The notes: generated by a model not told the origin, from the letters alone. DNA of 64,000 bases from a candidate division FCPU426 bacterium (GCA_040756875.1 JBFLYH010000002.1:47481-111480); one strand, 5' to 3'. Positions 15,901 to 50,253 are shown, counted from the first letter of the stretch. Translations and numbers: made by a program.

Positions 15901-18900
15901 CTCGGGAACCAGCTGGTTTTTATTGTCCGCGATCAGGGGCTGCAGGTCGTCCTCGATGACCTCGCCGGTAAACACGCCGCGGGTGTTGAAAACCAGGCGG
16001 TTGCCCCTGACCTCGGATACCACGACGCCGCGCGTCTCCAGGGTCCGGTTGATTTCTCCCCGGTTGAAGAACATCTGCAGCGATTGCTCGCTGCTACGGC
16101 TGCGCACGGCCACCTGGATGTCCTTGGCGCCGGTCGCGACCCGCAGCCGGTCCGTCAACTCCAGGAAACGCCCGTTAAGCTGCCAGGATGCGGCCTGGCG
16201 CCGCAGATGTCCGAGCGTCAGGCGGTCTTTGAGCACCGCCAGATAATTGCGGTACGCAGGGGCGGAAACCTCGGCGTCGAACCGCTGCCGGGCCTGGTTG
16301 TACGCCGTGGTGAACGTTTCGCGTTCCTCCGGATTGCGGATGGACACGGCGGCAATGTCGCGCAGGCTGAAGCCTTGCTCGGACCGGGGCAAGGTGATGG
16401 TTTCGTTGAAATCCGCGTAAATCGTGATCGGCTGGCCGGCGTGGAGCAGCCGGAAAGCCAGCTTGAGCGCCCCGCGCCGCACCCGCCTTCCCCACTCACG
16501 CCAGTCCAGGGCCCGGTTGCCTTCCAGATTGACGAGCAGGTGGGCTGCCGACACCAGCGGCACGAACAGGCCGGCGAACAGCAGCCCGCTGGGATTCAAG
16601 CCCAGTTGCAAAGCGGCCAGCAGCACTCCGGTGAGCCCGGTGATGCGCACCAAGGGCGCGCTAAACGCCAGCCCCAACGCCGCGCGCCAGGCCAGCGGCC
16701 GGCCGGCGGCGTCCTTCGCTCCCACGGCGTGCAGAAGATGCCATGCCAGTTGGAACAGACCGAACAGCGCCCAGAAGGGCGGCCCCATGGCCAGGGGCAG
16801 GCCGAACGCCCACACCAGCAGCAGATGCGACGCCAGGGTCAGGGCGCCCACAAACCAGCCGGATTCGACGAGGGCGGGCAGGAGCGCCTGGCCGAGGAAC
16901 CGCCCCCAGCGGGGCTGGCCGCGCTGGGCCGCCCGCTGCTCCATGCGGTCGTACCACCCTTGCAGCCACGGCCAGCGTCCGCCGGCCGCCGGCGCCGGGG
17001 CGCGGACCGCGGCTTGCTCGCTGTTCAGATCCTGCGCCACCTGCTGCAACAGTTGCTGCAAGGCAAACCGTTCGTCCAGCTTGTCGAGCAATTCCTGGGG
17101 CAGCACCGCCTGGCCCGAGGCTTCCAGCAATGCCTGGTGTTGAAGCTCCAATCCGTTCTGGTCCAGGCTCATCAGCCTCAGGTAATCCGCGGCCAAACGG
17201 GCGCTGTTGTCCTCCAGATACTGTTTCTGCCTGAGCGTGTCCCAGTGTTCGATGCGTTGTTCTTCCCAGGCGCGCGTCCGGATATAGGCCCACAAGCCCG
17301 AATCCTCCTGGACCTGGTTCAGGTTGGCGTAAACCGCCGAGAGCTGCGGCGAGATCCCGGCACCCAGATCCTGCCAGCGGGCGACGCTGAGTTTGGCGGC
17401 CTGGGCCAGTTCGGCGTCCAGCTGTTTGAGCCGCCCCAGCAGTTCATTGACCCGGATCTCCTCCTCCGTGACCGGCTGGTCGCTCCGGATGCGCGCCGGC
17501 TCGCTGGGCGGACGCGGCAGGATCTGGGGCGTCAAGCCGCGCCGGTCCCGGTTCAGCAGTTGGGTGCGCGACAACAACACGACATCCTTCGGCTCCTCGG
17601 CGTCCGTGGCATGCTCAGGGCCCAGGATGGCCGGCAGCACCTCGGCCAGGCGGCCTTTCTGCCGGCTGCGCAGCGCGAGGGTCTCATCGCCCACCTGCAG
17701 GGTCTCGGGCAGCTGGACGTTGTAGCCGGCCATGCGCGCGTTTTCCACGGCCAGGGCCAGGAGGCGGCGGTGAGTGTAGTCGATGTCCGGATGGTACCTG
17801 TTGGCCGAATCCAGCCACCACCAGAAATCGGAATTCACGGCCTGCAACAGGTAATACCAGGCCAGCTGGGTGTAGTCCTGGGGATAGATCACGGGCTGGT
17901 CGCGGTACCGGGTGTCCACGCCGGCCGCGCCGAACGCTTTGATCACCGCGTCGGTCAGGGCCCAGGCTTTGCGCTGCTCGGGCGTGTTGCCCGCCCAGCG
18001 GGAGAAGGACCCCAGCCGGCTGCTGGCTCCGGTGCGGTTGACGGCCGCGCGCACCTGGCGGCCCTGCTGTTCCAGCAGCCGCGTGCGCAGGTGCTGCTGC
18101 GCCGGTAGGCTCATCTCCATGTCCTGGAAATCTTCGCCGCGATAGTCGGGGCTGGGATTGGTGCGGTTGAGCAGCGTGAAGACCTGCTTCCAGAAATAGA
18201 GCCAGCCGCCTTCCTGCCCCACCTGACGGAAGAAGGGTGCGGAGCGCTCGCCGTCGATCATAAAGGAGATTTCGAACTGGCTGGGCAGGCCCAGTTGCCG
18301 GGCTTTGTTCTCGTATTCGGGAGCGTGCTGGCGCGGTCCCCAGCCGGGCCGGGGACGCAGCAAATGATCGTAGGCCAGAATCAACGCCGCGGACAGGCCC
18401 GCGGATTTGCCGCGGGCGTCTCCCAGTTCGTCCCTGGCCACATCTTTGGCGGATTGGGGGTAAAGCGTGATTTTGTGTTGAATGCCTTCCGCTTCCCACT
18501 GGTAATAAAACCCGGCCTGGTCGTCCAAGGGCGCAATCTGCCCCTGGTGCATCTTCAACAGCTGCTGCAGAAACGTCTCGGTTACGAAGACATTCCGGAT
18601 CCCGTGGGCATGCAGACGCCGCAGGGTGTCCTCGTCCAGGCCGTCCTCGCCGGGCCAGAGCGAATAGAACGGCATGTCGAAAAAGTCTTCCATCAAGGCG
18701 GTCATGTAATCCAGGGCGAACTCCGCCATTTCCGGATGCTTGAAATCCACTGCATACTGATCGCTGCCGCCGGCGGCCTGCAGAGCACTATTCTGGTCCG
18801 TCACCACGGGATAGATGAGATGCGGCGCCGCGGCGGCCAGTTCCACCTGTCCGGTCGCGGACAACGGCAGGAGCCCCAGGGCTTCGCGCCGGGCGTCTTC

Positions 18901-21900
18901 GCGCCGCACGGCGAGCCCGAAGGAAATCTGATCGCGGTCCGCGGCCTCCACCACCGTGTTCACGGCCACCAGCCGCGCGGCCGGCGCGATCATGGACAGC
19001 ACGCGGGTCTGGTCCCGGGCAAACGCCAGGCAGACCGCCTCGTCGCGCGCCAAGGCGGGCAAATCGGTCTGGGAGGTGTACCAGTACGAAAAATTCACCG
19101 TATGGGTGACCGGTTCGCCGGCGCGGTTGAGGCCCAGCAGGACCGTGCCAGCCGGACGCAGGCTGGGATCGATCCAGGCCGCGGCCTGGCCCAACAACAG
19201 CCCCTTGACCTGGGCCTTGAACGCCAGCCCCTGCTCTTCACCGGCCAGACGCTGCTTCACATATTCCCGGAGTATGCCCGGGGCGTCGAAATAACCGGCC
19301 TGGATGAAGCGTTCAACCCGTTCCGCGGGATTCTCCACCGCCAGCAGGGCCGCCATCCCCTCCGGCATTCCGGTTTTGTATCCCTCGGCTAAAAATTGCA
19401 GGTAATCGAGCAAAAGGGTTTCGCGCAGGCGGCGGTAGGCCGGGACTTCCTGCACCAAGTTCCGTTCAACAGCGCGGTCCATTTTCAAGGCCAGGAACAG
19501 GTCGTCAGCCGTCCAGTCGGAGAACGGCTTGACGGTGAGCCGGTAGAGCGGATCCACCGCCGTAGCGCCCTCCTTGCCGCTTTCGTCCAGGAATTGCCCG
19601 ATGATCGTGGCGCGGGCAGTCTGCGCCTGTTCCTCGGTCCAGCCTTCGGCCGCGCGGCGCTCGTTTACGTCCGCCAGGGGCTCCCACAACCAGGTTTCCG
19701 CGGCCCGCACCTGGTTCCGCAGCTGGTCCACTAGTGAGGCCGAAAGGTTCACGGTCAGTTTCGCCCCGCGCAGGGCCGGATCATACATCGCGGCGAAAGT
19801 GGGATAGTAGGTCCGGAGGCCGTGGAAACGCGCCCAGGCGGATTCCGACTGGTCGCTGCCCATGGGCTGGTGGTCGTTGAAAACGATCTGTATTTTCTTG
19901 GGGCGGTTGAGCAGTTCCAGGCTTTGCTGCAACTGGCGCTCCGTGGGCGAAATGAGGGCGGCCTCGATGCGCTGGGCCAGATAATGCCGTTTGACCGGCG
20001 GCACGGCCGGAAGTTCGGGCCGCAGCCGGCTGCGGTATTGCTGCAGGAAGAAGCGCGTGGTATGCCCGATCAAGGCCAGGCCCGAAGCCAGGATCGCGGT
20101 GCCGATCAGGCGGCCCATGGTCACCACCGGCCCGCCGAAGAGCCACAAGGCGGCCGCGCCCAGCACGACGGCCAGGGGCAGCGGGCTGGCCAGAAGATTG
20201 AACGCGCGGCCGCGGAGCAGGCGCTGGATCGAAGGATACTGCAGGTACCCGGCTGATTCGAGGAACGAAAACACCGCCTGGGCCGTGGCCCGCCAGTATC
20301 CCTGCCCCGCGGCCTCGTAGATGAGGTACCGCAGGATGGCCAGCTGGAAGGAACGGTCCAGGGCGTCGAAGTGCTTGTGCACGTAGATGATCGGCTGCTG
20401 GGCCACGGTCTCGCTGCTGCCCAGGCGCAGGCCCTGGGTGAAGCGGGAGGAGAGCGATTGTTCGGGCAGGACGCGGAAGATCGGGCGGCGGTAGCCTTCC
20501 GGCAGCCGTCCGTTGCGCTCGACTTCCTCGAGCACGTCCTGCAGGCGCCGGTAGACCGAGGAATTGGTCAGCGCCGGAGTGGCGGGCCTGGCCAGCCGCG
20601 CATAATAATATAGGAAGCGCGGGCCGTAGCTGGCCAGCAGCGTGAGCAAGGTGAGGGCCAGCCAGATGCCAAAGAAGGCCCGGGTGCCGGGGCCGAAGAA
20701 CCACGCCAGGCTGGCGCCGAAGGCCAGCGTGGCCAGGACCGCGCCCAGGACCCGCAGGGGCGGGATGCCGTAGTAGCCCAGAGTCGCCCGTTCCAGCAGC
20801 GGCCGCGTCAGTGGCGTGGCGCGGCGGTATTCCTGCTGGCTGCCCAAAAGCCCGGCGGCGAAACCCATGGCCAGGTACTGCAGGCGGATCATCTCGGCCC
20901 GGTCGCCCTTGATGCGGGCGGTTTCGGTCTGCTCGGCCAGGCCGTTCAAATACCCCAGCACCTGCCGGTTGGCCGTGCCGCCCGTGGGATCGGCCAGCAG
21001 GCTGGCGAGATACCCCAGCAGGTATCCTCCCCGGTGCCGTTGATTGTAATTGTCGTCCCCCTGGGCGTTGAACAGCATGACCTGGTCGACCAGCGGGCTC
21101 TTCTCCTCCAGCAGGCGCTCGAACCCATCCACCAGGCCGTTCAGGTTGGCGGCCGGACTGCGCCCCACTTCCTCGCGCCGGTCCACGTTGTAGAACGACC
21201 ACGCAAAGGGCTCGAAGCGGCCCTGCACGCTGAGCCGCTCCAATTGCGCCGGACCCAGTTGCAGGGCCAGCGCCTGGGCCTGGCCGCGGCCTTCGGCCAG
21301 GTGGAGTTCGCGCTCCTGGTCCTGGCGGTCCAGATAATGCAAGTACTCCACCATCTCCCGGGCCACGCGTTGGGTGCTGATTGCCTCGGACTGGCCCAGG
21401 GAGGCGCGGAGCAGGCGCGCCTGCCCGCCCGGGCGCCGGAGTTCGGCGTTGGCCTGCTGGAAGGCCCGCATCAGGGCTTGCGGCGTGAAACTGCGGCGGT
21501 TGCCGTCGTCCGGGTCCGTGGTGTCGTACGGCAGCAGGAAGGAGTTGAACTGGTCCTGCGAAAACCGGGTGCCCGCGGGGAACTGCCCGGGATAGTCGGC
21601 CTCCTGGCCGCGGTACACGCAAAACTCGGGGATCGCCCCGTCCGGCGAGGCGATGACCACCGTGCCGTTGGCCAGGTCTTTCATGAAGCCCGTGGCCGAG
21701 GCTTCGCGGCCCTCGTTCGACCCCATGACCGTGCCGTCCATGCCCGCGGCCAGGGTGCGCATGTCCATGGTGTTGAAATTGGGGAAGAACAGGACGCGGT
21801 CCCTGAGCGCCGGATGGGCGTTGATCAGGTTGAGGAAAGCCTGCACCAGTTTCTGGCTGCCCTGGTCGTCTTCGTGCACCCGGCCGCCGAAAACCATGAC

Positions 21901-24900
21901 CATGTCCTCCTTCAGGAACTGCTCGCGCAAGGAGTCGTCGGCCAGCAGCTGGTAGAGCTTTTTCAGCTGTTTGTAGTCCACCACGCGGCGGGTCCAGTGG
22001 AAGAAGCGCATGCCCGCCACCCGCTCCTTCCAGCCCGCGTCCAGGCCGCAGTTCTCGACCAGCAGGTCCTGCATGGCTGACCGGGCCTTGGCTTTCTCGG
22101 CCACCAGCTGCTCGTCGCTCTGTCGCGCCCAACCGCGGAACCCCGGCCACTGCCAGAACTTCAGGTTGACGCCGTTGGTGATGGAGACCACTTTGTCCCG
22201 CACCCGGCGGTAGGTGGGCATGGTGCGCATGGTCTGGGCGTGGAGTTTGGCCACGCCGTACAGGCCGTGCGCCAGGGCCGCGATCATGCCGGTGATATGG
22301 ATTGTGTCCCCTTCCAGGGCCAGGCGCAGCAGATCCGGGTTGAGCCGGTACCGTTCCAGGAAGCCCTTGCTCTCCTTCATGTGCGCGTATTCCAGGGGCG
22401 TATGGTCGTTGAACACGAATTTGGCCCGGCCCAGAGTCTCCTGGAATTCGTCCTGCACCAGGGCCGGCAGGGCGAACGTGCCGGCGCTCATTTCGGAGAC
22501 GATGACCGTGTCCGGGTTGATGCCGAGTTTGGCCAAAAGCGCCAGGTAGCCCCGGCCGATCAGGTAGCTTTGCTCCATCTCGATCCGCTTCTTGCGCTCC
22601 CATTCCGGGTCTTTCTGGAAACGCTCGGCGCCGTGCTTGTCGGCCGAGCCCGCGTAAGCCACGTCGAAGACATTGGGTTCGGTCTCGGCCGGATCGAAAT
22701 CATCCAGGTAGTAGGTGACGCTGTCCGTATCCTGGTCGTAATCCTCCCAGACCCGGACTTTGCGCAGGCGCTGGTCGTAAAGCGGCACTTCGAGCACCAG
22801 CTGCTGGCCCGGATGCTCGGGGTCCGGGGCCGGCCGCAGCGCGGAACGGAGCACATCGCCGGTCGTGACCTGCTGCAGGCTGAATTCCGGGTAGGTCACG
22901 CCCGCTTCGCCCAGGGTTTTCACCTGCTGCATCCAGACTTTTTGGTAGAGAGGCGCCACGCTGACCACGCGCCGGATGCCCGGGTCCACGGCCAGGTCCT
23001 CCAGGCGGTCGCGCAGGAGCGGCCCGATGCCGCCCACGGACATGGACATGCACATGGTCTGCAGCACCTTCCGGACGCTGCCGGCTTGCCGGATGGCTTC
23101 GTCCAGGCGCTGCCGCCAGGGATGCCGCGGGTTCTCCAGGGCCTGTCGCGCGGCCTGTTCCATGCGCAGCGTCAGCCGGCTTTCCACGGTCAGTTCCACC
23201 ACGGTCTTGGCGTGCGGAGCCGTGGTCGCCAGGCGGGCCAGATGTTCGTAATGGACCTCGCGCGGCCAGTCGAACGCCCGCAGCCTGGCCACGGCCGCTT
23301 CGTGGCCTTCGCGCAGGCTGAGGAGTTCGTGCAGCAGCAGGTAGCGCAAGCCGTCCGGAAAGGCGTTGCCCAGGCGCTCGCGGAAGAAGCGCAGGCGTTC
23401 GCCGCTGATGAAGAGGTATTGGATTTCCTGGCCCTCGAACACCGGGAACATCGTGCCGCGGTTGATCAGTTCGAACAGCTCCCGGCCGGGCCCGGACAGC
23501 CGGTCCACGAGTTTGGGGTCCGCTTCGCGCACCTGCAGCCAGCCCTTGACTTCCCTGGCTTCGTAGCCGCGCAGCAGTTCCGCGTACTGCGGATCCGCGA
23601 ACAACCCGTCGATGGCATCGGCCAGCTCGTGCTCCCACTGCCGCTGTTCCACGGCCAGCCGCCGGTTGGCCGCCTGGCGGCCCAGGCCCAGCCGGTTCAG
23701 CAGGCCGTCGAACACTTCAGCTTCGGTAAACAGCTGGCCGGCCGCCACGGCGGCGGCCAGGGGTCCGGTTTTTTCCAGCTGTCCGGCCAGCTGCAGGACC
23801 TGGCCCCCGAAAGTGCTGTTGAGGAACGCGTAGGCTTCGGTCTCCCGCGCCTGCGGCTGGACCACAAACGCGAATCCGGCTTTGGGCCCGCCCACCAGGT
23901 TCACCACGGCGTGCGTCCCCACGATCACGGCCAGCGCCAGGCCCGCGAACAGGTAGCCTGTGGGATTGAGCAGCAATTGCAGCGTGGCCAAGGCCAGCCC
24001 GGTCAGGCTCGTGATCCGCAGCAGCGGCAGCGAGAACAGCGGCCGCCAGTGCTGCTGAACGAAAGCGCGGACAGCGATTCCGCCGCGAGCCTGCCAGGGC
24101 ATGTGCCCCAGGTGCCAGGCCACCTGCAGCACGCCGAAGGTCGCCCAGAACGGCGGACCCAGGGCGAACGGCAGGCCGAACGCCAGGCTGAGCAGGAACG
24201 CGCCGGCCAAACTCAGCGCGCCCACGAACAGGCCGGATTCAACGGCCGCCGGCACCAGGGCTTGGCCCGCCACCCACCCCAGGTGTTTGCCCAGCACGCG
24301 GCTTGCCCCGGCTTCCACGCGGTCGTACCAACCCGCCAGCCACGGCCAGCGGCCGCGGGTGGCCTTTTTGTTGAGATAATAAGTCAGCAGCATCCGCTGG
24401 GTCTGTTCTTCCGCCTCGTTGATGCTCAAGGCGCCGGCCGGCACCCGGGTGACCTCGCCGCCGGGCGCGAGCATGAAAGAATCCCGGGGCACGAGCCGAC
24501 CCTGCGTCTTTTGGTACATGGTCAGAAACATCCGCTGGTCTTCCTCATCGCCAGTCAGCAGGTAGCCGCCCTCGCGGACGTCCTGTCCCATTTGCAGGAT
24601 CCGCTGCTCGCGCTGATCCTTGTACATGTACAGCACGTTGAAGCAGATCTTCAGGTCCGCCGGCACGTTCTGGCCGAAGGAGGCCTGCACGACCTCAAAG
24701 CCGTTGGCCGCGGCAAAAGCGGCAAAGGGCTGTTCGACCACCCGCAGGTTCGCGGACAAGGTCCCGGCCTGATGGCGTTGGAACCACTCCGACATTTCCT
24801 GCAGCCGGCTTTCGTCGTAAACCGTCGTGCCGCCGGACTGGAAGCCGGCCAGGAACCTGCCAGCCTGGTCGTAATAGGCGAACTCGCCGGTCTGGGCGTC

Positions 24901-27900
24901 CGTGACGGACCAGGCCGGGACCAAAACATCGCTGCCTTTGACCATGGCCTCGGGATTCAGGGCGTGGACCGCGGCAGAGAGGTTGGCCACCGTGACCGGG
25001 ACCGGACCGCCCAGCCCGATGTTTTCGACCACCACGTTGTTCCTGCGGGACAGCATGCGCCGCAGCGAGCGCTCCCGGCCTAAAAATCTCCATAGAAGAT
25101 CGAGCCGGTTGGGCCGGGTGTTGATGTTGATGAAGCCCTGGAACGGCTGGTCGGCCAGGGATTGTTCGAGTTCACGGATTTGCTGCGGAGTCAGGAGCCT
25201 CCTCAAGGCCGGTTTGATCAGCATTTGCGTCGCGGCCGTGCGGGCCCGGGCGATGATGCCGAAGGACGGATGGAAAAGCAACTGGCGCAGGGTGGCGACC
25301 GCGGCTGCGCGCTCTTCGTAAGACAGCCAGTCCCAGCGGTCACTGATGCGCTTCACCTCGGCCGCGGCTGCGTTGAATTCCATGGCCGGTTGGGCGGCCT
25401 GGGCCTGCGCTTCAACCTGCCGGAGCGGAGCCTGCGTCGCTTCCTGATCGCGGAGGAACCGCGGCGTTTCCCCGGGTCGTGTCTGTATTTCCGCCACCGG
25501 CACCACGGCTATTCCGAAAATCAGCCGGACGCTTTCCCAAAACGCGGCGGCGAAGGTCCTGCCGCCTGCCTGGTCCTGCGGTTGGACCAGGAAAGCCAAA
25601 CCCGCCTTGGGTCCGGCCACCAGGTTCGCCAGCGCATGCACTCCCACCATCACAGCCAGCGCCAGGCCGGCGAACAAATAGCCCGTGGGATTGACCAGCA
25701 CCTGCAGCGTGGCCAAGGCCAGCCCGGTCAGGCCCGTAATCCGCAGCAGCGGCAGCGAGAACAGCGGCCGCCAGTGCTGCTGAATGAAAGCGCGGACAGG
25801 GGTTCTGGCGCGCGCCTGCCAGGGCATGTGCCCCAGGTGCCAGGCGGCTTGCAGAATGCCGAACGCCGCCCAGAACGGCGGGCCCAGGGCAAACGGCAGG
25901 CCGAAGGCCAGGCTGAGCAGGAATGCGCCGGCCAGGCTCAGCACGCCCACGAACAGGCCGGATTCAACGGCCGCCGGAAACAGGGCCCGGCCCATCACCC
26001 GGCCCAGGCGCTGGCCCAGCACGCGGCTTGCCCGGGCTTCCACGCGGCTGTACCACTTCTGCAGCCAGGGCCAGCGGCCTGAATCGTGCATCATATGGGC
26101 CATGATCAGATTTTCAGTCTGCTTCTCGGCCGCGGCGATGTCCAGATGGCCGGCGGGCATTTCGTAGGGCCCTTCGGGCCCCAGCATGACCGTGCGCTGG
26201 GGTTGGAGCCGGCCCCTGCGTTTTTCATACACCGTGAAAAAGATGCGGCTCACCATCCCGTCCCGGCTTTCGTAGGTTTCCTCCTCGCCCACGAGCAGGA
26301 CCCCGCCCTCGCGGAGGTCCTGGCCCATGTCCGCGATCAAGTCCGCCTTTTGCCGCGGGTACATGTACAGCATGTTGAAAACCAGTTTCATATCGGCGGA
26401 AATGCCCCGGCCAAAGGCCGCGCGGGCGATTTTAAAACCGTGCTCAGCGGCGTACGTCTGCAGGGGCCGGTGGTTGGCCGTATAGCCCTCGGGCAGCTGC
26501 CGGCCGGGCTTCAGCGACGCGAAAAACGCCAGGTCGTCCTGTTCGGTCACCGCGCCGCCGGTGGATATGCGAAAAACGCCCATCAACCCGCCGTTCTCAT
26601 CGTAATAAGCGAAACGTTCGTTGGCTGCGTCCGTGATCGACCACTCGGGCACCAGGATGTCGCTGCCCACGACCAGGGCCTGGGGATTGAGGCTGTGCAC
26701 GGTTTCGGCCAATTCGGCCACGGTGGACGGTTCCTGGCCGCCGAGCCCGATGTTCTCCACCACGCGCCGGCCCGGTTTCCGCAGCAACCCGCCCAGCATG
26801 GCGTCCGTGGCGAGGAATTGGTTCAAGGCCTGGAGGCGGTTGGGCTGGGTGGACAGATTGATGAATCCCTGGTATGCCTGCCTGGCCAGGGCGTGCTCCA
26901 GGGCGGCCTGCTGTTCCGGCGTCAGCAGCGCGCGCAGGTCATTGATGTTGAGCAGGGCCAGGGCGGACTGGCGCGCGCGCGCCACCACGGCAAAGCGCGG
27001 ATCGGCCAGCCGCTCCGCGACCAGCGCCACCGCGGCTGCGCGCTTGGCGGCTGTGAAGGATTTGAAATCGACTTCCGCGCTGACCAGCCTCCGGATCGTG
27101 CCGCCCAGGGCGGGCAAGGCCAGCACCGGCCACTTCAAGTTCGGGAAAGTCCGCGCCACCCAGTTGTTGAGGCTGTGAATCAGCGACGACGCCAGGAACG
27201 CGGCCAGGCCGCCGGTTAGGGGCAGGTTGGCCTGGCTCAGGCCAAAACTTACGGCAAAATACACGGCCCCCAGCAGCAAGGTCATTCCGCCGGCAGCCAG
27301 CCACTGCCTGGTGGTCCAGCCTTGGTCCCGGTGCGCGACCAGGAACGCGCCGCCGAACACCGCCAGGCCGATCCCGGCGGCCAGGGGCGAGAGGACTCCC
27401 AGGTGGAACAGCAGCATGGGCGCCACGCGGAAAATCAGTTCCTCGCCGAAAGGCCGCAGGCCCTTGGGCACCCAGGGCAGATGCCGCTCCCAGAAGGACA
27501 GTTCCAGCTCCACGGACGCGGATTCGCCCGGCGCGCGCGGTTTGAGCGGCGTCTCCTGCACGCGGGTCTGCAGGCCATGGAAGGATTCCGTGTACAGCAA
27601 GTGGGTGAAAGCGCCCGGCATTTCCGCGGTCAGGCGTTCGGCCTGGGCCACGGTCCAGCCGGTTTCTGCCAGCGAAAACTCGAATTGCGCTTCCGCGTCC
27701 AGCAGGTAGAAGCTCAAGGGGCGGACCTCACCGGCCTGCTTCTGGTAGAGCACGAAACAGGCAAACGCCAGGCCCTGTTCGTTCTGGGTCTTGCCGGTCA
27801 GCAGGTAACCGCCTTCAGCCAGGTCCTTCCCCATGGTCCGGACGATTTCCGCTTCCTTGCCCGGGTTCATATACATGACATTGAAGCAGGTTTTAATGTC

Positions 27901-30900
27901 CGCCTTGATCCCCTCGCCAAACGAGGCGACCTGCACGGAAAAACCGTTTTGGCTGGCGAAATACTGCACGGGCCTGAACACCATTTCATAGGTCTGCTGC
28001 AGTTCTAGGGACGAGGCAAAGCGCTGGTACACGTCCGAATATTCCCCGGCCAGCCCGTCCGCCGGGATGCCGCGGGGCGTATACGCCTGGATAAAGTTGC
28101 CCCGCTGGTCAAAGTAGGCGAACCAGCCCGTGGCTTTGTTGCGCAGCATGAACGCCGGCAGGAAAAGGTCGGCTCCGATCACCTGGTTGGCGGGATTGAT
28201 GCTTTTGGCCAGGGCGGACAGTTCCGCCGTGGTCACAGGTTCAGGCCCGCCGATGCCGATGTCATTGATGACCGCGCCGGCCGGGCGCTCCAGCAAAGCC
28301 CGGATGCCCGGGAAACGAGCCAGGAAACCCCACACGGCCGAGAGCCGGCCGGGTTCGGTGATCAGGCGCACAGTGGCCGCCTCCCTGAATGCTTCCAGCT
28401 TGTCCTGGGCCAATTGCTGCAGGGCCGGGTCCTCCAGCCCCGGGGCCAGGACGTTCAGGGCGTGCCAGGCGGACATGACCACGCGCAGGTTCGTGTGCAG
28501 CAGGAGGTTGATCAGGGTATAGGCGTACGCCTCGCGCTCGCCGCGGCCGAGTTCCCCGCGGCGCCATTCGATCCCCACCACCCCGCGCACGATGTCCCCG
28601 GCTTCGGAACTGGCCAGCAGCGCCGGTATTTCCTCCGGGCGCGCGGCTTGGGCGCTGTCTCCGGCCACCACGGCGGTCAGTCCTTCGGGTTGGCGCAGGG
28701 AGGCGAGCGAATCCCTGGCGGGCGGCGAGCGTTCCGGCAGTCTGGCTTCGAGCTGGGGTCGCGCCACATCCGGTGCGGTTGTGACCAGCAGGGTCTCAGC
28801 CAGCAGCGCTGTAAAGGAAGCCCCCAGCTTCCCCCAAACGGTTTTTTTACTGTCAGGCGTCCCTGTTTTCGGCTCGAGGACGCCGGCTTCCGCGCCTTCC
28901 ATCCCCTTGCCTTCCAAAGCCAGCACCGGCCAGTTCAAATTAGGGAACGTCCGCGCCACCCAGTTGTTGAGGCTGTGGATCAAGGACGAGGCCAGGAACC
29001 CTGCCAGGCCGCCGGTCAGGGGCAGGTTGGCCTGGCTCAGGCCGACGCTGGCGCCGAAGTATGCCGCGCTCAAGACAAACGTCACGCCGGCCGCGGCTAG
29101 CCACTGCCGGGTGGTCCAGCCTTTGTCCCTATGCGCCACCAGGAACGCGCCGCCGAACACCGCCAGGCCGATCCCGGCGGCCAGGGGCGAGAGGTACCCC
29201 AGGTGGAACAGCAGCATGGGCGCCACGCGGAAGATCAGTTCCTCGCCGAACGGCCGCAGGCCCTTGGGCACCCAGGGCAGATGCCGCTCCCAGAAGGACA
29301 GTTCCAGGGTGGGCGTGCCGGGCCGCTGCACGGTGGGCGGCCGGGCCAGTTGCTGGGCCGCGATTTTTTCCTGCAAGGCTTGTTTGACCGCGGACACCAC
29401 GTTCAACAGCCGCGGTTCAGGTTCGTCGAGATGGAGATATCCTTTCAGCGCCTCGGCCGGCTGGAAGAGATAGGCCGGAACGGATTCAGGCCGCGTCTGC
29501 AGGTCCGAGGCCGGCACGACCACCGGCGCAATGGGCTGGTCGTCGAAGCGCAGCACCCGGCCGGCTGTGCCGTCCAGGTAGAACGTCAGGCCCGCGACCT
29601 GGGTTTCAACCACGGATTCGGATTCAAAGCGCAGGGGAAAGCTCAATTTTCGGGCGGTAAACCCCTCCTGCTTGAGCAGGTTGCTGATTTCCTGCGCACA
29701 GGGCCCGCACAGGTTGGGATAACGCACATCCGACGTGATTTCCCGCAGGGCTCCGGGAATGGCGGCCAGCACTTTTTTAAAGCGCGTCACTTCCTCCTGT
29801 TCGGCCGGGGACAGGGTCCGGCCGGTTTCAGCCAGCACCCGCTGCAGCATAGCGTCGAAGCGTTCGGGTGTCATGCCTTCATACTCCGGATACATGCGCT
29901 CCGGCCCGCTGAAGTGCGCCATCAGCATCTTGACCGCATACCCCAGGGTGAACCTTTCGCCTTCATGCACGATGCGCCCCAGGCTGTAGCCGGATGAAGT
30001 CCGGTCCATGCGCGCGAGCTCGTTCACGAGGAATTCGCGCGCCTGCGGGGTTTGCAGGTCCAGGCGAGCCAGGGCTTCAAAGCCCTTCTGCAGCACCGGC
30101 ACGTGGGGATACAGGCCGCGGAGCGGCGCTAAAATCTCTTGGATCCTGGCCATTTCCCTCTCCGCCAGCCCGGCCGGCGCCGGCGCGGCCACGGATTCAG
30201 CCTCCACCGCGTGCAGCTCAGGCAGCGCGACCTGCGCAACCTCCCGCCCCTCCTGCGCGGCCCGCAAGCCCAGGGTGATCTCGTAACCCTGCCAAGTGAG
30301 TTCCTCGGTTTCCTGGATCGTCAACCCCTGCGCCGGCAAATCGAAACGGCGGTTGCCCGCGATGATGTGGACGGACTGCGGCACGATCCGGCCGTTTTCT
30401 TTCCGGTAAACCGCCAGCTGGAGGTCATACGCCTTGCCCGGCCCCCGCCAGGCGGAGAGCGAATGGCCGGTGACCAGGTAGCCGCCCTCGTTCAGGTCCT
30501 GGCCCATGCGTTCGATGATTTCGGATTCCCGGCCCGCGTAAAAATACAGCGTGTTGAAACAAAGCTTGACCTCCGCCGGCGCCGTTTCTCCGAAGGAGGA
30601 CTGCTGGATCTCGAATCCGTATTTTTCCGCGTACGCGCGGTACGGGTCCGGCTGGAACGTAAAACCAGTTTGCGGCTTGGCGGGTTGCACGCGGAACTGC
30701 GCAAAAGCCGACCGGAAGCGCCTGGCCCAGGCCGTACTGCGCGTGGGATTGCCCTTGTCATCATAGAGGCCGAGCAAATTGCCGTCCTGTCCGAAGTAGG
30801 CGAACAAGCCGTTCGCGGCCTGGACCTGGTAGGCCGGGATTAATACGTCGCTGCCGACCAGGCGGGTTTGCGGATTCATCCGGCGCAACCGGGTGGCCAG

Positions 30901-33900
30901 TTCGGCCGTGGTCACGGGCACCGGCCCGCCCAGCCCGATGTCGTTCACCACCGCGCCCCCGCGCCTGAGCAGCAGGGCCCGGATGCCCGGATGGGTGAAA
31001 AGAAAATCATGCAGCCGGGTCAGCCGGCCCTCGAACGTGGAGACCGAGAGCAGGGCGAAACGGTCGTGCTTGGCCAGTTTTTTCCGGACGGCTTTTTGCT
31101 GGGCCGGTGAAAGCCGGGGCAAAACGGCGGTCAGGGTATGGTATGCGGCCATGGCCACGCGTCCGCGGTACGGTTCCATCAGCATCAGCAGGCGTTCGGT
31201 GTATTGCGCGAGATCGGCTTCGGCGATTTCATCGGCCCGGGCTTCGATGGCGCTGATGCCCCGGATCAGCTTGAGCACGCTCGAGGAATCCAGCAGCTCG
31301 CCGATCTGCGCGGCCGGCGCGGCCACATCGGGCCTGCGGGGCAGCACCGGGATGCGGCCCGGCTGGATTTCCATGTCCGTGCCCGCGAAGCCCGTGGCCC
31401 GCAGGTACTCGGGCAGCCCGGTTTCCAAATACCGGCCCAAGGCTTGCGTGAAGTCGCTGGCGCGGGTGAGCCGGGCGCTGACGCTGCCCCAGGCCTCCTC
31501 CAGGTAAGCCCGGCCTTCCACCGGCCCCAGGGCGTCCATCACTCCGTCGAAGATCGCGTTGTCCGGCCGTACACGGAAGGCGAAGAACACCGGGAACAAG
31601 GCGATCAAGGGCGCGAACAGGCCGCGCATCCGGCTGGTCACGGCCAGGCGCTTGGGCCCGTAGAAAGCCGAATAGTACATGACCTGCGAAAACGGCTGGC
31701 GCCGGAACGGCATGGGGAGCAGCCCGTCTCGGTCCACCAGCTTGGGCTCGGCTCCCGGTTCGTCGGGCAGGATCATGTTCTCCGGTTTGGGGTCGAACAG
31801 CACCCAATTGATGCCCGTGCGGTCGCGCAGATATTTCAGCACGGTCAGGTAGGAACGCACGGCCAGGCGCGGCACCGAACCGTTGACCGCCGGACTGGCC
31901 TCCTGCACCTGGTCCAGGGACCGGCCGTGGATGAACTCCTCGGCCATGATGCCCTGGTCCACGAAATGGAAGCTGGGCATGTTGGGATGGCCCTGCAGCC
32001 AGAGCTGGCGGATGCGCGGCTGGAGGAGCGCGACCCAGCCGACCAGGCGCCGCGGCACTTTGAAGGCCACGTCCACCTGCCGCTGTTCGCCGTTGGCGAA
32101 AGTGACCTGCGTTTCCACGCGGTACGCCCGTTTGAACGCCCCGCCGCCGGTCGGCGTGATCTTGACGTCAGGCCCGATCCGCTGCACGCGGGCGCCCGAG
32201 GGCAGGGCCAGGCGGATGGAGCGTTCGAGCAGCCGTTTGCCTTCGACGGCCCGCTGGATGCGTTTGCGGTCCGCGCCGGGAACATCGGCCGAAAAATCCA
32301 GCGCCAGTTCGCGGACCACGCCCGCGGGTTCAGCCGGCGCGGGCCGGGACTGCCAGCGGTAGAAGAGCAGCAGCGCCAGCACCATGACCGCGCCCAAGGC
32401 CGCGCTGCCGGCCACGGCCAGGGAAAAGAAGCCCAGGACATAGGCGGCCAGCGGCAAGGCCACGGCCAGAGTGAAGGCCCCGGCCGCCAGTAGCCACCGG
32501 CTCCAGGAAAGGGCGGGGTGCGTTTCCGCCGCCGCCGGGGCCGCGCCTTCGGCCCGCGAGCGGCGCGTGACGCGCAAACCCCGCGTCTGGCCGCCTTCCG
32601 CAGTCATAAATCCGTAGAGATGGCAATCGCCGGCCGTTGGCATGGAGACGCCGATCTGGTCCACGTTTACACCCTGCCAGGCGCTGGTGTCCACGCTGAT
32701 ACGGCCCACGAATCCCGCCCCCAGGTCAAAGGCGCTTTCGCCCACTTTCTGGCCTTTGCGGTAATACACCAGGGTGAGATGCGCGGTTTCCGCGCGGTGG
32801 TTCATCACGGCCAGGCGCAGGCTGTCCCCCAGCCGGCCCGGAATGATCCGGGCCTGCGCTTCCTGGGAACCGATGGCGTGCAACAGCAGGTTCGGGGCGC
32901 GGGCCGCGCGGGGAATGAGGCCCAGCCAGTAGGCCGGGTCGCCCCAACGCGGCGTTTTCTGCTCGTCCGCGGGCGACGCGGGCCGGGCCTGGTCGAAGAA
33001 ACTGGCGAAGAGGCGGACCGCGCCGGGATGGGCCGCGAGAATTCCCGCCGGTTCGCCCGGATACAGCTGGCCGAGCATGTCCACGAAAGCGGCGTAGGCC
33101 GAGTACAGCAGCCCGCGCCCCTGCAGGCTCCGCCCCAGGCCCTGGTGTTCGATCTGGACGCGGGTGCCGGCCGCGGATTCATACCGCGTGAATTCCCAGA
33201 TGAACAGCGCGCCGCCCACGCCCTGGTCGACCTCGTAGGCCCCCACGGTCTCAATGGCCTGGGCCAGGCTGAATTTGGGCGCGATCAGGATGCGGTGCTT
33301 GAACTTGTGGCGGTCGCGCGCCTGCTCCGGGATTTCCGGGAACTGCATGCTCAGGTAGACCAGGGCGTCGTCCGGCACGTCCGCCAGGTCGGTCCGCAGG
33401 GCTTCGATGATCCTGCGCTTCAACTCCACGTAGGGGATGTAGTTGTCCGTGTCGAATATTTCCTGCAGCCGGATGGTGAACGGCACCAGGGGCCGGCCCC
33501 GGTTGTTCTCCCGCACCATCACGGTTTCCAGCTCGCCCAGCCAATGCGGCGTGTCGAACAGCGTGAACCGGGCGCGGTCCTGCCGGGCCGAGAACAACCG
33601 TCCGAGGGCGATGACCAGGGCCGGCGCCAGCAGCGCCTGGGCCAGCAGGCGCGTCAGCCACCCGTTGACGAGCCGGTAGCGGACCGTGCCAGGCGTGAAG
33701 CGGTCGAGGGGCAGGCCCAGGGCCTTGAGGCCGCGCACGGCCCAGCGCCGGGCCAGGCCGTCGAACGCGAACATCACCCAGTTGCCGTCGCGCACCACCC
33801 GGCCGTGGTTGTCGTAGAACTGGCGGGTGGCGGGTACGTAGGTCCCCAGCGGCGCATTCAGCAGCCGGCTGGTGGCGTCCAGCTTCCGCCACTCCTCGAA

Positions 33901-36900
33901 GGCGAACACCACCTTGGAAAACTCCACCAGGAAGAAGGAGTACAGCGCCCCGAACACCAGCGGATTGGCCGTCAAAAAGCCGGCTGCCACGCTGAGCGCC
34001 AGCCACCAGGCCATGCGGCCCAGCAGCCCGCCGAGCGAGATCCGCTCGCGGGGCAGGCGCGTTTCTAGGCGGCGGTCGAACCAGGCGCTCGTGTCCGCGA
34101 ACTGCCGGCGGTAGGGCTGCTGGCGGGTCTGCACGCTGAAAGCCGAGAGCGCCACCGCCACCCCGCGCCCCGGATCCTCCAGGGCGGCGTTGAGCTGGTC
34201 AATGGTCAGCCCCCGCAGGCGGGAGATCGGCAGCGTAAACCGGCCCGCGCGCTGGCTGGGCAGTTCCACGACTGTTTCCTCCACGGTCCGGTTTTGCTGG
34301 ACAAAGGACAGGACCACGCGGACCGGCCGGTCGCTGCTTTGCTCGAACCGGAATTCCAGGCTGTCGCCCAGGTGAACGGCCTGCAGCCGCTGCATGGCCG
34401 GCGCTTCGGCCGTGGTCTCGGGGCCGAGTTCCACGGCCAGATCGACGCCCTCGTCCGTCAGCACCGCGCTGCGGCTGAGGTCGTCGTTGACCGCCAGTTC
34501 CACGGGCGCGGCGATCCACAGGGGGCTGACGGAGGTCACGGCCCGGTTCGGGTCCCGGCGCAGGTTCACCAGGCCTTTGGATTCCAGGTTGGCCAGCAGC
34601 ATCTCTTCCACCTGGTTCAAGCGCAGCACCACCAGGTCATACTGCCGTTGGGCGGCCAGCACGGCCTGGATGCGCTGGAGCAGGTTCTTCTCTCCCGGCG
34701 ACAGCGAGCCGTCCTCCCAGCCGGCCAGCAACGCGCTCCGCGCCGCTCGGGCGGCAACCGGCAGCCCGGCTGCCGCGGCCCGGCTGGGCAGCCAGCCGCG
34801 GCCCGGCGTATATAATAATGTATCCGAAGTCAGCAGGCCCGCCAGCTGCTGGCCGGACACCGGCTGGAACAACCGGAGTTGTTCCGGAACGACGATGCCC
34901 TGCTCCAGGAGCCCGGCCCTGAGCTGCCGCTCGTATTCCTCGGCCTGCGCCTGGGACAGTTCCCGCGGATGATACCAGACGCGCAATCCCTCCAGGGCCT
35001 CGCCGGTCATCAACTGGTTCGCGGCCAGCAGGCCCGTTTCCTCGGAAATGGCCGCGATCCCCGCCAGCCGCCCGTCCTTCCCCGCCTGTTCCACCAGCTG
35101 GTCTAATAGCGTCCGGACCGGCGCGCTGCCGTTGGGCTGGAAAGCGGCCAGCTGCGCCACGCGGTCGGGCGCAGCCGCGCCCAGCAGCTGCAGGCCGTTG
35201 AGGAGCAGATGGGCGTTGAGCCAGCTCGTTTCCCGGTCCAGCAATTGCAGCAATTCCACGGTGGCCGTTTCGAAAGCTTTCTTGGTCTGCCGGCGGCTGG
35301 CCAGGTAGGTCCAGAGCAACACGGCGTTTCCGCGGATCAGGGGATTGCGGTTCCACAGCAGGGGCCTGATCAGCGCCGGGTTCTGCTGGTTCAGCAGGCC
35401 GTGGAAGGCCTGGAAGCGCGTGCCCGGGTCCGCGTCGCCGAGCTGCCGGATCCAGTGCAAATAGGTGTCCGACGGCAGGGTGGGAATGCTCTCCCAGAAA
35501 ACCGTCAGCGGCCCGGCGACCCAGTCCAGGATGTGCGCCAGGCCTTCGGCCAGGATGCGGTTGACCAGCAGGTGCGCGAAAGTGCCGGGCCGGGTGCGCC
35601 GCAGGTCCAGGCCGAACCAGGACAGTAACTTTTGCGCCCAACGGTGGGCGTACACCTCGTGCGCCCAGACGATCCAGTGGGATTCGGGCACGCCGTTCAC
35701 CGAACGCATGATGGTGCCGGTGTTGGGATTGTAGGTGGCCACCGGTGTGGCCCAGCTCCGTCCGGCCGCGGGCAGCTGGCGCCATTGCGAGAAGGTGAAC
35801 AGCAGTTTCGCGGACGCCATGGTCAGATAGGGGATGGCGATGGCCAGCAGGCCGGGGAGCATCCAGGCCGCGGCCACCAGGCCCACGGCCAGCAGGAAGG
35901 ACATCAGCGCGCCGGGCAGATTCAGCGGCAGCAGGCGGCGGGCCGGATCATCGGCCGGGAGCCAGCGCTTGGCGCCGGCGCGGACATAGTCCGTTTCGTA
36001 AACCGTTTCGAAAACCCGCTTCATGCCCGCGCGCAGGTCGCGAAGGGCCGGTTCCCCTTCGCGCAGCAGTTTTTCGCCCAGCCGGAGATACGCGTCCTCC
36101 AGTTCCGCCGGCGTGTAGGTCCGGGTCTCGAAATCAGTCAGCTCGCCGGTCCGCTCCACTTCATCCAGGCCCAGCAGCAGCTTCACCGCCCCCAGGTCGC
36201 CGGAAATGGCCAGGTCGAAGATGGAAGTCAGGCTGTAGGACAGGCCGTGGACGATGAACTCCGCGCCGTATGCGCTGAACTCCTTCCAGGCGGCGAACCC
36301 CAGCGTGCCCCAGCCCGAGAGCAGTTCCAGGGACAGGTCCACCGCGTGCTGCACTTCGTGTTCTTCGGTCACCCGCGCCAGCAGCTCGTAGATTTCCTCT
36401 TCGCTCAAGCCTTCGAATTCCCAGGCGAACAGCCGGTTCGCCAGCCCGATCACCTCTTGATTGGGCGTTTTCAGGCGGTACACGCCCTGGGTGGGAGCCG
36501 CAGGATCCAGGCGGGAATAAACGTACTGCCGTTTTTGGGAGAGCGCGGCGTACACCACCCGGGCGTCCTTGCGGATCGCGTCCTCCAACATGGCCGGATG
36601 CTTGAAATCCTCCAGCAACAAGCCCGTGAAGGGCGGCAGCAGCGCGGTGTCGATCAGGCTTTTTAAACGCCAGAATTCCAGCGCGCGGCCGGCCAGCTGG
36701 CCCCGGTCCACGCGCTGGGTGATGCTGAACGGAAACAGCATGGGCGCGGCTTCCTCGCCCGCAACGTCGGGCTTGAGGCGCATTTCCAGCAGGTAATATC
36801 CGAATTGGGCCAGCAGCCGGTTGAGGCTGGCCCGGGCCTCCATCATCCGCGCTTCCTGCTCGGGCTGGGGATTTTCCAGGTACTCGAAGAGCACGTTGAA

Positions 36901-39900
36901 TAACCCCGGCGCCACGCGGTGCATCTGGCGCGAGAGCTCGAACACTTTCTGCTTGAGCCCGTCCGGGATGCGGGCCGGAGGCTCCTCGGTATGCCGCAAT
37001 ACGTCGGACAGTTGGGGCATGACTTCATGCATGAGCTGGTCCACGGCCGGGTGCTTGTATTTGGCGGGCTGCGGAGCCACGATCCGGCGGGCGCTGGTCT
37101 GCTGGGTCAGGGGCATGAGGCGGCGCGCGATCCACAGCCCGGCCACCAGCAGCACGGCCAGGGGAATGGCCGCGGACAGCGAGAGGGCCCCGGCCCAGAA
37201 CAGCAGGCCCAGTCCGGCCACCAGGGCAACGGACAACCCCACGGCCAGGCCCGTGCTCTGCAGGAAGAAATACAGCAGCGGCGAGCTGACGGTCAGGGTG
37301 ACCGGAGCCAGGGACAAACCGGCGTGTGCGACCAGCCAGTCGTGCTGATATCCGGTGACCGACAGCACCAGATCGCGGGCTTCCGCGTGGGTGAACCCCT
37401 GGTCCTCGAGCCATTCATGGAAGAGGATGGCCGCGGCCTCCCGGTCCTGGACCCGCGCCAGGGTGCGGGCCGCCAGAAAACATTTGCCGTCCAGGTGGAA
37501 GGCGCCCAGGCGCTCCAGGTCATCGTCCGTGGCTGCCGGCCGGGTCCGCGCCTGGCGCACCATGAGATGCAATGCGCCGGGATCCGCCACGGCCTTGGCC
37601 AGACGCCGGCCCTGCGGCCGCGATTGGTATTTGCGCTGGGCTGTTTGGACGAACCCCAGCCATTCCTCCGTGATCCGAGGGCCGCGCGCCCGATCGGCTT
37701 GCTGCAGCGGCAGGGCATGCAGGGCCTGGGTCGCGAACAACGCCCCCAGGAGCTGCGCCACTTTCCGCTGGGGCAACCGGGTGAGCACGAGCAGCGCCCG
37801 GCCGGGCCGGATCATCATGTCGAGCGTCGCGGCCGCGTTGCGCAGCGCGCGCTCCAAAATCACCTCGGCCGGTTCGCCCAGAAACGCGGACGACAGGGGC
37901 AGCGCGCGCCGGGCCTGCCGGGCCAGGTGCTCCAGCACGTCCAGAGGAGAACCCAGGCCGCCGGCCAGCCAGGTCCAGGCCGCGTCCTTGGGCGCTTCGC
38001 CGAAGTATTGGTCATAGGCCGGGTCTTCGGCCAGGGCCTCACGGAATTGGTCGGCGATCCGCATAAATTGTTCGTCCTCCGCGATCAGGCTCGCGTCCCG
38101 GACGCGCAGGAAAGCGGCGGCCATGGCAGGCGTAACTTCCGGCGTCTGCAAGTCCCGCAGCATCTGGACCGCGGCGTCACTTTCGCCGGCCGCGGCCAGG
38201 GCATAGGCTGCCACCAGCCGGCGCATGGCCGGGGTCAGCACGGACAGCGGCAGCCGGGCCTGGTCCTGTTCGCGGCGGGCATTGGCCGCGGCCAGGGTTT
38301 GCGCGAGGCGCTGCTTGCTTTCAGCCGGCAGGTTGGCCGCGGTCCACAGGCTGTAGGCGGGCATGGCGCTGGGCCCGCCGCTTTTAACGTAGATGACGAA
38401 GCTGAACAGCCGGCCGGCCCACTCCTGCTCGCCGAGGATGGGCGCCACATTCTGCACCGGGCCCAGGCTGATGATCCGGCCGCGCGCGTCCGCCAGGCCG
38501 TTTACCGCCACCTGGCCCTGGCCGAAATGCGTGCCTTCCAAAACCAGGCTGCGGAATCCTGGCGAATGAATCAGTTCCAGATTGCGGTTGCGTACGCTGT
38601 TGGCGTCCGGCTGGACGCCGGAGCGATCCCGGGGCGCGTAACGCAGCCCGCCGATCGCCTCCACCACGCCCAGGAGTTCAGCGCGCGTCATGGCCGCGAG
38701 CAGGGCCTCGGCGCGGAAACGCTCCAGTCCCAGGGCCTCAGCCACCTCGTCCGCGCCCAGGGTTTCGGCGCCTTGGTCAAACAAGGCCATGACCCGGGCC
38801 TGCTGCTGCTGGCGGTGGAAGAACAGGTTGGTGTGCAGGCTGTACGGCGAGCGGGGGCTGATGAATTCCTGCCACGTCTTTTCGGGCACGTCCGCCCAGG
38901 CTGCGCGGAAATCGCGCGCCGCCCGCTGCTTCTCCGCGGCCGTGGCGTGCTCGCGCCGCAGGAGCTCGCGTTCGATGTCGCGCCATTCCTCGGCCGTACG
39001 GATGCGCACCCGGCCTGCGTCCGCGTTTTGGCCGATGAAGGCGGCCCACACCTGGGACGCCGGCGCCTCACGGACCGTTCCCCAGACCGCCGCGGCCTCC
39101 GGGGCGGACGGGGCGGCCGAAGCCTGCTGCACGCCGGCCGCGGCCCAGGCGCCCCAGTCAAAGCCTGTTTGCGCCCCGCGGTCCGCGGCCCAAGCCGCGA
39201 AATCGCGCTGCGCGTAGTTTTCGAAAGCCAGGTCCCCGCCCCCGCGCCGGTAGGCCAGCCATTGGTCGTAAAACGCCCGTTTCGCAGGATCGGACAACAC
39301 CTCGTACGCTTCGTTGACCAGTTGGAACAGCCGTCCGGCCTCGGGATCGTCGGGATGCAAATCCGGATGCAGGGCGCGGGCCTGCTGCCTGAACGCGGAC
39401 TTGATCTCCTCGGCCGGCGCGTCGGACCCCTGCTCCAGGCGGCGGTAATAATCCTTGGCCTGCAATTCGGCCACGCGGTCCGGAACTTCGAGCCCGGCTG
39501 CCGCGATCAACGCTTCGTTCGTGAAACCCGTGACCTCGAGCACCGCTTCCACGGCCGCCTCATGCGAAAGCCCCAGGGTCTCCAGCGCCTCGTGCAAAAT
39601 CACGGCCGCAGCTTCCCGGGTCGTCAGGCGGTTGAATGCTTCCTGCGTGAGATAGACGCCGCCCAGCAGGTGGAACGCGCCGACCCGCGCCAGGTCCGCG
39701 TCCGTATCCACGCCGGCCGGCGCCTGGTTGCGCTCCAGCAGGTTGATCGAAAGGGTCCGTGCGTTCAGCCGCCGGTTTTGCACCGGCGCCGTACGCACGC
39801 TGAACAGGCGCTCCGCGTGGGCGAGGTAAGCGGCCAGTTGCTCCCGCACCGGCGCGGCGCGGCGGGATTCCGCGTCCTCGAGGGAACGGCTGGCCAGCGC

Positions 39901-50184: not shown

Positions 50185-50253
50185 ATTAATATGGATAATC
50201 CCCGAAAAAAGAGATGGATAATTACTATGACTATAACATATTTTAACCACCAA

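Follow-up and report, generated by a model that had tools for sequence, protein, structure and literature searches.

Two CPBP-like four-helix membrane modules within a giant mosaic protein of a candidate division FCPU426 bacterium

In a 64,000-nt stretch of DNA from a candidate division FCPU426 bacterium (GCA_040756875.1 JBFLYH010000002.1:47481-111480; hereafter the window), a giant open reading frame (ORF) on the minus strand encodes a mosaic protein of 12,426 amino acids (aa), in which soluble enzyme-like domains alternate with several kinds of repeated transmembrane (TM) module. Two of these modules, C1 and C2, carry the motifs EELIFR, FLVAH and HSLNN on a short run of membrane helices, in the order typical of the CPBP (Rce1-like, Pfam PF02517) glutamic intramembrane proteases. 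We describe the module as CPBP-like by motif and topology and do not file it as a member of the CPBP family. Judged from its sequence, it may well be a highly diverged CPBP derivative reduced to the equivalent of TM4-TM7, a four-pass membrane staple whose Glu/His/His/Asn site is maybe hydrolytic; we give this reading about even chances.

12973..50253, minus strand: giant ORF, 12,426 aa, TTG start
28903..29307, minus strand: CPBP-like module C1, aa 6983-7117; PF02517 15.3 bits, E 0.025
29227-29244 (aa 7004), 29131-29145 (aa 7037), 28963-28977 (aa 7093), minus strand: EELIFR, FLVAH and HSLNN of C1
27103..27507, minus strand: CPBP-like module C2, aa 7583-7717; PF02517 17.3 bits, E 0.006
27427-27444 (aa 7604), 27331-27345 (aa 7637), 27163-27177 (aa 7693), minus strand: EELIFR, FLVAH and HSLNN of C2
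28917..29307, minus strand: gene-conversion tract of near-identical DNA, shared with 27117-27507

An earlier note on this DNA had reported all three motifs in both copies, and translation confirms each of them twice, with the two sets offset by exactly 600 aa (1800 nt); the range it gave, 27115-29307, runs from the first codon of C1 almost to the end of C2. A looser form of the motif-1 pattern finds no site in the giant protein beyond these two. The spacing within the modules, 37 residues from Glu to His and 52 from His to His, lies inside the range of true CPBPs. As a test of chance, the pattern EE...R.{20,50}[FWY]...H.{25,75}H...[ND] was run over all six-frame ORFs of at least 80 aa in the whole genome, a total of 3.56 million residues, where it occurs four times: in one bona fide CPBP, in the two C modules, and once as a chance match in a non-hydrophobic context. 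A pattern found this rarely, with one occurrence due to chance, indicates that the motif trio is more than coincidence.

The presence of the full set in both copies should not be counted twice. In the self-comparison of the giant protein C1 and C2 are 88% identical over 135 aa, and their DNA is near-identical, synonymous sites included, over most of the module, with a more diverged stretch in helix 3 and an abrupt end to the identity on both sides. In a comparison that includes the sister species the two copies are 79% identical to one another, whereas each is 63-68% identical to its positional ortholog. Near-identical DNA with sharp ends, together with this greater likeness within than between species, is the mark of intragenic gene conversion and not of independent conservation, and the two copies are therefore not independent and count as one event. 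The segment that separates the copies differs by species: in the giant protein it is a CheR-like repeat of 465 aa, in the sister species a stretch of 902 aa that includes a DUF1152 domain.

Independent evidence on the motifs comes from relatives of the module, which are few and phylogenetically confined. Searched exhaustively with phmmer, a set of 1.84 billion representative proteins yielded seven relatives, five of them proteins of 2,015-5,657 aa, and a word-index homolog search limited to proteins of up to 2000 aa, and thus without the giant hosts, returned only P0007, a 378-aa protein in which the module follows a weak SIS-like domain. The module is present in 11 of 99 genomes of the phylum, all 11 in one order, whose two families have it in 6 of 10 and 4 of 4 genomes (the window's own genome not counted); in the other families it occurs in none of 84. 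A search of the bacterium's own 3.22-Mb genome finds module C only as the two copies in the window. The open frames around module matches range from 500 to 12,659 aa, the short ones stopping at contig edges, and those orthologous to the giant ORF measure 8,636-12,659 aa. The domains that flank the module in its relatives include PRTase-CE, a weak kinase-like domain, HD_5, PPDK_N, DUF1152, or nothing recognisable, and this variety of enzyme flanks suggests that the module is a portable membrane element placed between differing enzyme cassettes. At one related locus (L034, G019:C87) residues 774-982 of the locus translation hold module C followed by a PRTase-CE domain (E 2.6e-8). PRTase-CE is a family described from conflict systems.

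Conservation was assessed over 16 independent copies from 11 genomes, aligned as 17 rows with one copy present twice. Pairwise identity among the 16 copies falls to 27%, with a median of 39%, and only 11 of the 103 core columns are invariant, among them the columns of the second Glu, the Arg, the two His and an Asn. At the seven canonical motif positions, four residues never vary and two others vary in a single copy of the 16, an enrichment with a hypergeometric P=0.002 as computed on the 17 rows. Position by position, the first Glu of motif 1 is present in 13 of 16 copies (Gln in three), and the second Glu and the Arg in 16 of 16; the Phe of motif 2 is present in 15 (Trp in one) and its His in all 16; and the His of motif 3 is again universal, with Asn at His+4 in 15 (Glu in one). 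The same alignment has a strong signature of its own after helix 2, the invariant W, W, A and T of 'GWTxRQWxxAxxxT', which is without a CPBP counterpart. Conserved segments, 'LELSFWER...' and 'WPxLxL', also lie in the flanks of the module.

The motifs fall on predicted membrane helices in the arrangement that a CPBP core would require. An AlphaFold2 model of C2, built from an 8-row alignment with a 145-aa query, reaches a pLDDT of 79.1 and a pTM of 0.69 and places helices at query residues 22-42, 48-64, 73-99 and 103-127. On this predicted secondary structure E29/E30, H66 and H118/N122 map to helices 1, 2 and 4, with the Glu pair at the start of helix 1, the motif-2 His at the end of helix 2 and the His/Asn pair in the last third of helix 4, a placement that concerns position along the sequence rather than three-dimensional convergence of the side chains. 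Averaged over the 16 copies, Lys plus Arg number 0-0.1 in loops 1-2 and 3-4 and 2.0-2.7 in the N-terminal flank, loop 2-3 and the C-terminal flank. By the positive-inside rule this distribution suggests an N-in/C-in topology with all three motifs toward the cytoplasmic face. A short amphipathic helix and a soluble domain come before the module, whose even number of passes accounts for the plainest role that could be proposed for it, which is to staple the chain to the membrane and return it to the cytoplasm.

Such a placement agrees with what is known of Rce1, in which the cavity opens to the cytosol and the catalytic water lies about 10 A below the cytosolic surface; as described for that enzyme, this water is bridged by E140 and H173, and the oxyanion hole is made up of H227 and N231 (PMC5874806). 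The CPBP domain proper is stated to be constituted by TM4-TM7 (PMC11980579), and the module matches it in size. In the mechanism we propose, each module would cross the membrane four times (in-out-in-out) and bring the chain back to the cytoplasm, so that the soluble enzyme domains on both sides would remain cytoplasmic and tethered to the membrane, the module being one of several kinds of TM staple in the giant protein. It would derive from the TM4-TM7 domain of Rce1-type proteases with the N-terminal TM1-TM3 removed, and would retain the Glu of helix 1, the His at the end of helix 2 and the His/Asn pair of helix 4, all at one depth close to the cytoplasmic side. In Rce1 such an arrangement activates a water molecule and stabilises the oxyanion, and both window copies, which have the full canonical set, could be hydrolytically active. 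Common descent with CPBPs is probable on the sequence evidence, and protease activity is possible.

Profile comparisons both support and restrict this reading. PF02517 is the only Pfam family matched by several members of the module set (four of eight at E<=1, best E 0.006, none above the cutoff), and the match spans profile positions 15-92 of 93. In a comparison by hhalign with 29 bona fide CPBP domains, all from genomes of this phylum, the module alignment gives a probability of 77% and P=2e-5, the values being the same with 17 or 16 rows, and with -mact 0.05 all three motifs are in register. As controls, reversed-profile nulls gave P 0.05-0.14, and P was 0.097-0.4 for seven further TM modules from the giant protein. 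Among named clusters of the ESM Atlas, PF02517 scores best (0.84), and the ten best family-bearing matches all share a family or clan; this points weakly to CPBP and is a lead only. The EELIFR hexamer is the same as motif 1 of a true CPBP from the same phylum, L005.

Several results weigh against a derivation from CPBPs. The PF02517 scores of 15.3 and 17.3 bits are below the gathering score of 22.4 bits, the NCBIfam CPBP models give no match to either copy at E<=10, and the C modules are not among the PF02517 matches of their own genome at E<=0.001. That genome encodes four ordinary stand-alone CPBPs, which score 52-99 bits with a hidden Markov model (HMM) derived from the CPBPs of the phylum and run over the six-frame genome ORFs, while the module in its context scores 4.5 bits, within the noise (top 8.2); copies from related loci scanned in isolation with this model score -1.2 to 16.5 bits. 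When the seven motif residues were masked with X, the hhalign result fell from P=2e-5 to 0.35, whereas 27 of the 29 bona fide subfamilies, each compared with members less than 30% identical to it, kept P<=2.4e-4 and the two weakest gave 6.9e-4 and 0.12. This loss of signal indicates that the likeness to CPBPs is carried by the motifs alone. Searches of the Protein Data Bank (PDB) sequences with module profiles of 8 and 16 rows found no Rce1 or SpdC at E<=10, whereas a control CPBP profile found 4CAD at 3.8e-15 and 6U0O at 0.0044; the single-sequence and profile searches of the PDB with the module gave nothing, or two chance matches at E 0.7-0.9. The module also consists of four helices only and lacks TM1-TM3. 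In the alignment to MmRce1 the catalytic E140 falls on the first Glu of the module, which is Gln in three of 16 copies, and it is the second Glu, invariant here, that aligns to E141, which is described as not facing the cavity of Rce1 (PMC5874806). Lastly, the sister species has no fully canonical copy, one having QE in motif 1 and the other HSFNE in motif 3. By these sequence comparisons the module is at or beyond the edge of the CPBP family.

These findings alter the description in the earlier note, which had called C1 and C2 motif-complete CPBP proteases. The motif set itself stands, on its order, its spacing, its placement on helices 1, 2 and 4 and its conservation in 16 copies; family membership is unproven, and 'motif-complete protease' overstates a case with sub-threshold Pfam scores, no NCBIfam match, a motif-only similarity and a predicted fold for which no Rce1 or SpdC match is listed. 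The same note had raised the concern that a module of this length might be too short to form the Rce1 core in models. Length is no problem, as a true CPBP core of 118 aa used as positive control in the fold comparison folded and was recognised, with 4CAD and 6U0O as its top matches. It is the module's model, built on 8 sequences (pLDDT 79.1), that does not appear Rce1-like, no chain of CPBP fold (Rce1, SpdC) being among the matches listed for it.

The masking and fold results are what would be expected of an unrelated, lineage-specific four-helix anchor in which the polar residues serve helix packing or the binding of ions or metals and the CPBP likeness is convergent or due to chance. Such an anchor would leave no profile similarity once the motifs are masked, would be predicted, as this one is, to fold into a generic bundle without a CPBP match while the positive control works, would find no PDB, NCBIfam or above-threshold Pfam match, and could carry a strong signature of its own such as 'GWTxRQWxxAxxxT'. 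In addition, TM module B of the same protein also has conserved E, H and HxxxN-like residues at its helix ends and shows no profile relation to CPBP, so such patterns can recur within the giant protein. However, three motifs in the same order, on equivalent helices, on the same face and with the spacing of the family would be an unlikely coincidence, and the pattern search produced only one chance match in 3.56 million residues even though it did not require membrane helices. The identity of EELIFR with the hexamer of L005 also speaks against convergence, as does the agreement of Pfam, hhalign and ESM, all of which point weakly to CPBP while the nulls and the other TM modules do not. Moreover, L025, the weakest bona fide CPBP and above the Pfam cutoff, behaves like the module under masking. 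We regard an unrelated anchor as somewhat unlikely, though it deserves serious weight. A different kind of unrelated origin, as a fragment of an MntP/LysE-type ion exporter, is very improbable. PF02659 (Mntp) scores 21.1 and 20.7 bits on the single copies (E 3-4e-4), higher than Rce1-like on each, and 33.9 bits, over its cutoff of 24.4, when both are scanned together; but the match is 39 residues long, covers profile positions 7-45 of 152 and is made only by the two gene-converted copies of this genome among the eight members scanned, and the summed score counts near-identical duplicates twice. We rejected the MntP reading because the match is short and confined to these two copies.

If the module does descend from CPBPs, it could do so as a pseudo-enzyme, a scaffold that keeps fold and motifs and performs no proteolysis, like the SpdC/LyrA-type Abi proteins; Abi-domain proteins with regulatory, non-proteolytic roles have been described (PMC5854430, PMC3578759). 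The tolerance of Gln in place of the E140-equivalent Glu (3 of 16 copies) and of Glu in place of Asn at His+4 (1 of 16) is consistent with such a role. So is the fact that between the sister species the module, at 72-74% identity, is no better conserved than its flanks, mostly at about 60-76%, and a structural task is evident in the return of the chain to the cytoplasm. Against this, 13 of the 16 copies keep the full set, and the invariance of the second Glu, the Arg, both His and an Asn at 27-50% overall identity suggests more than a packing role. We think a pseudo-enzyme rather unlikely. The view of the earlier note was the opposite one, that active glutamic intramembrane proteases cut the giant protein in cis and free its enzymes in the manner of a polyprotein. 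It is true that soluble enzyme-like domains lie on both sides of the modules, which that note had called spacers; both window copies have the full motif set; and the putative active site would be on the cytoplasmic side of the membrane, as are the linkers. In giant Omnitrophota proteins, embedded C39 and S8 peptidase domains have been proposed to maybe cleave their hosts (bioRxiv 10.1101/2023.11.21.568195), and self-processing of giant bacterial proteins is thus already an existing hypothesis. Yet only two of roughly 17 TM clusters in the giant protein are of the C kind, which leaves most junctions without a protease beside them. The characterised CPBP proteases are described as cutting next to a lipidated Cys near the C-terminus (PMC5874806, PMC11980579), and no conserved Cys was seen in or beside the module in the 16-copy alignment. 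The catalytic-Glu position is variable, TM1-TM3, which shape the cavity, are missing, and family membership itself is unproven. The few C-type clusters, the lack of a nearby conserved Cys and the variable catalytic-type residues make cleavage the less likely branch, and we consider in-cis processing improbable. The claim that the two copies are its strongest direct support is not justified, given the QE and HSFNE copies of the sister species and the absence there of any that is fully canonical. A fuller version appears more improbable still: minimal four-helix glutamic proteases in a membrane-threaded polyprotein would cut the chain beside themselves, one 37-kb gene would yield stoichiometric, membrane-tethered enzymes, and the repeated, gene-converted modules would act as recombination joints for swapping enzyme cassettes.

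The favoured reading, a diverged TM4-TM7 staple, can be placed beside known systems. The CPBP/Rce1-like proteins (PF02517; MmRce1, 4CAD; bacterial Abi proteins and the myxosortase MrtX) share with the module the order of EExxxR, FxxxH and HxxxN, their placement on three out of four successive membrane helices, the size of the TM4-TM7 domain and motifs toward the cytoplasmic face. They differ in that the module is below every curated threshold, resembles them by motif only, has a model that is not recognisably Rce1-like and has a variable E140-equivalent (Gln in three of 16 copies). It also lacks TM1-TM3; in Rce1 the lipid-entry gap is formed by TM2 and TM4, and TM1-TM3 shape the substrate cavity. 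Finally, it is internal and repeated in a protein of more than 12,000 aa, whereas they stand alone at roughly 200-400 aa. SpdC/LyrA (6U0O) and the Abx1-type Abi scaffolds, which are of CPBP ancestry and are known to organise or regulate partners and not to cut, offer a possible functional analogy for a module whose most evident role is structural. APH-1, a subunit of gamma-secretase, has a CPBP-like fold without protease activity, in a eukaryotic and defined complex; it is not among the module's structural matches. A likeness also exists to the Omnitrophota C39 and S8 domains, which are of protease type and lie in giant bacterial proteins with many TM segments; self-cleavage of these proteins into several products has been proposed. 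Unlike the module, the C39 and S8 domains are soluble cysteine and serine peptidases and belong to a different phylum and protein family. Neither 'CAAX' nor 'CPBP' occurs in the main text of that preprint or of other papers on giant bacterial proteins, and in the literature we found no report of CPBP-type modules in giant proteins (main texts).

If the modules are true CPBP derivatives, they would be the smallest form of the protease fold, TM4-TM7 alone, and the first case found in which that fold recurs as a module inside a giant membrane protein with several enzyme domains. They would also bear on the question whether giant bacterial proteins work as one chain or are cut. Should the likeness be only convergent, the module would simply add to the kinds of membrane anchor in an unusual protein. 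The host protein is worthwhile either way, as a chain of 12,426 aa with at least five kinds of repeated module that is confined to one uncultured order.

The layout of this host is defined by self-comparison, which distinguishes four copies of TM module A, two NTP-transferase units, four CheR-like repeats, the two C modules, three copies of TM module B and two other repeat pairs. Hydrophobic clusters are spread over its full length. Pfam recognises NTP_transferase (two), DnaJ, HD/HD_5 and a fragment of glycogen phosphorylase (Phosphorylase). Around the C modules the order is repeat 1, linker, C1, repeat 2, C2, repeat 3, B1, repeat 4, B2.

30295..31323, minus strand: CheR-like (putative SAM methyltransferase-like) repeat 1, aa 6311-6653; CheR E 0.044, under cutoff
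27592..28647, minus strand: CheR-like repeat 2, between C1 and C2, aa 7203-7554; 39.5% identical to repeat 1
26086..26979, minus strand: CheR-like repeat 3, after C2, aa 7759-8056; CheR E 0.0019, 18.1 bits against a cutoff of 27
aa 8354-8618, minus strand: CheR-like repeat 4, from the self-comparison
47644-48105, 43636-44097, 35509-35940, 33658-33990, minus strand: TM module A, four copies, aa 717-870, 2053-2206, 4772-4915, 5422-5532
25492..26079, minus strand: TM module B1, aa 8059-8254, a different four-segment membrane module
23785-24354 (aa 8634-8823), 16516-16980 (aa 11092-11246), minus strand: other copies of TM module B
39265-39453, minus strand: DnaJ (J) domain, aa 3601-3663, E 3.6e-18, mid-protein and far from both ends

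The domains on either side of the C modules had been labelled methyltransferases, a label that is better softened to CheR-like. Its basis is a weak resemblance in Pfam (E 0.0019-0.044 per repeat), and repeat 2 scanned alone matches no Pfam family at E<=0.05; CheR rises above its cutoff only when the scores within a 4000-aa chunk are summed (31.8 bits), and a profile search of the PDB with the flanking repeats, made to confirm a methyltransferase, returned nothing at E<0.17.

Module B replaces C after repeats 3 and 4, B1 taking after repeat 3 the position that C holds after repeats 1 and 2. Its conserved residues lie at helix ends (P..ES..FVG, W(H)..H, H...N), and it is found in eight of 15 genomes of the order. 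The four copies of module A are 30-47% identical to one another and consist of two hydrophobic helices followed by a conserved 'AHExxAHRW' (a HExxxH-like His pair) in three copies, the fourth being degenerate; copies A1-A3 match no Pfam family at E<=0.1. Two further candidates for a CPBP relationship were considered and rejected: module B as a second, degenerate CPBP type with conserved E, WHxxH and HxxxN (hhalign with 13 sequences, P 0.28 against CPBP and 0.19 against module C), and module A together with four other TM clusters (hhalign P 0.097-0.4).

A single-protein locus search with the module found one locus, L033, which holds the ortholog from the sister species. This ortholog is collinear with the giant protein and 50-90% identical across the collinear part. 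L033 has nothing that corresponds to a stretch of about 1,200 residues in the giant protein (window about 32250-35925, aa about 4776-6000), in which TM modules A3 and A4 lie; the difference is a large indel within the gene.

Giant open frames also occur elsewhere in the bacterium's own 3.22-Mb genome, at least two in number (8,807 and 6,963 aa), both without module C and on contigs named C1 and C2 (contig names, distinct from the modules). Directly downstream of the giant ORF and likewise on the minus strand, there are a second very long ORF (4959-12794, minus strand, 2,611 aa) with only a borderline LysM match, a GT4 glycosyltransferase of 833 aa with a long N-terminal extension (2341-4842, minus strand) and a Ppx/GppA phosphatase (687-2255, minus strand). 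Upstream are ordinary leu/ilv biosynthesis genes.

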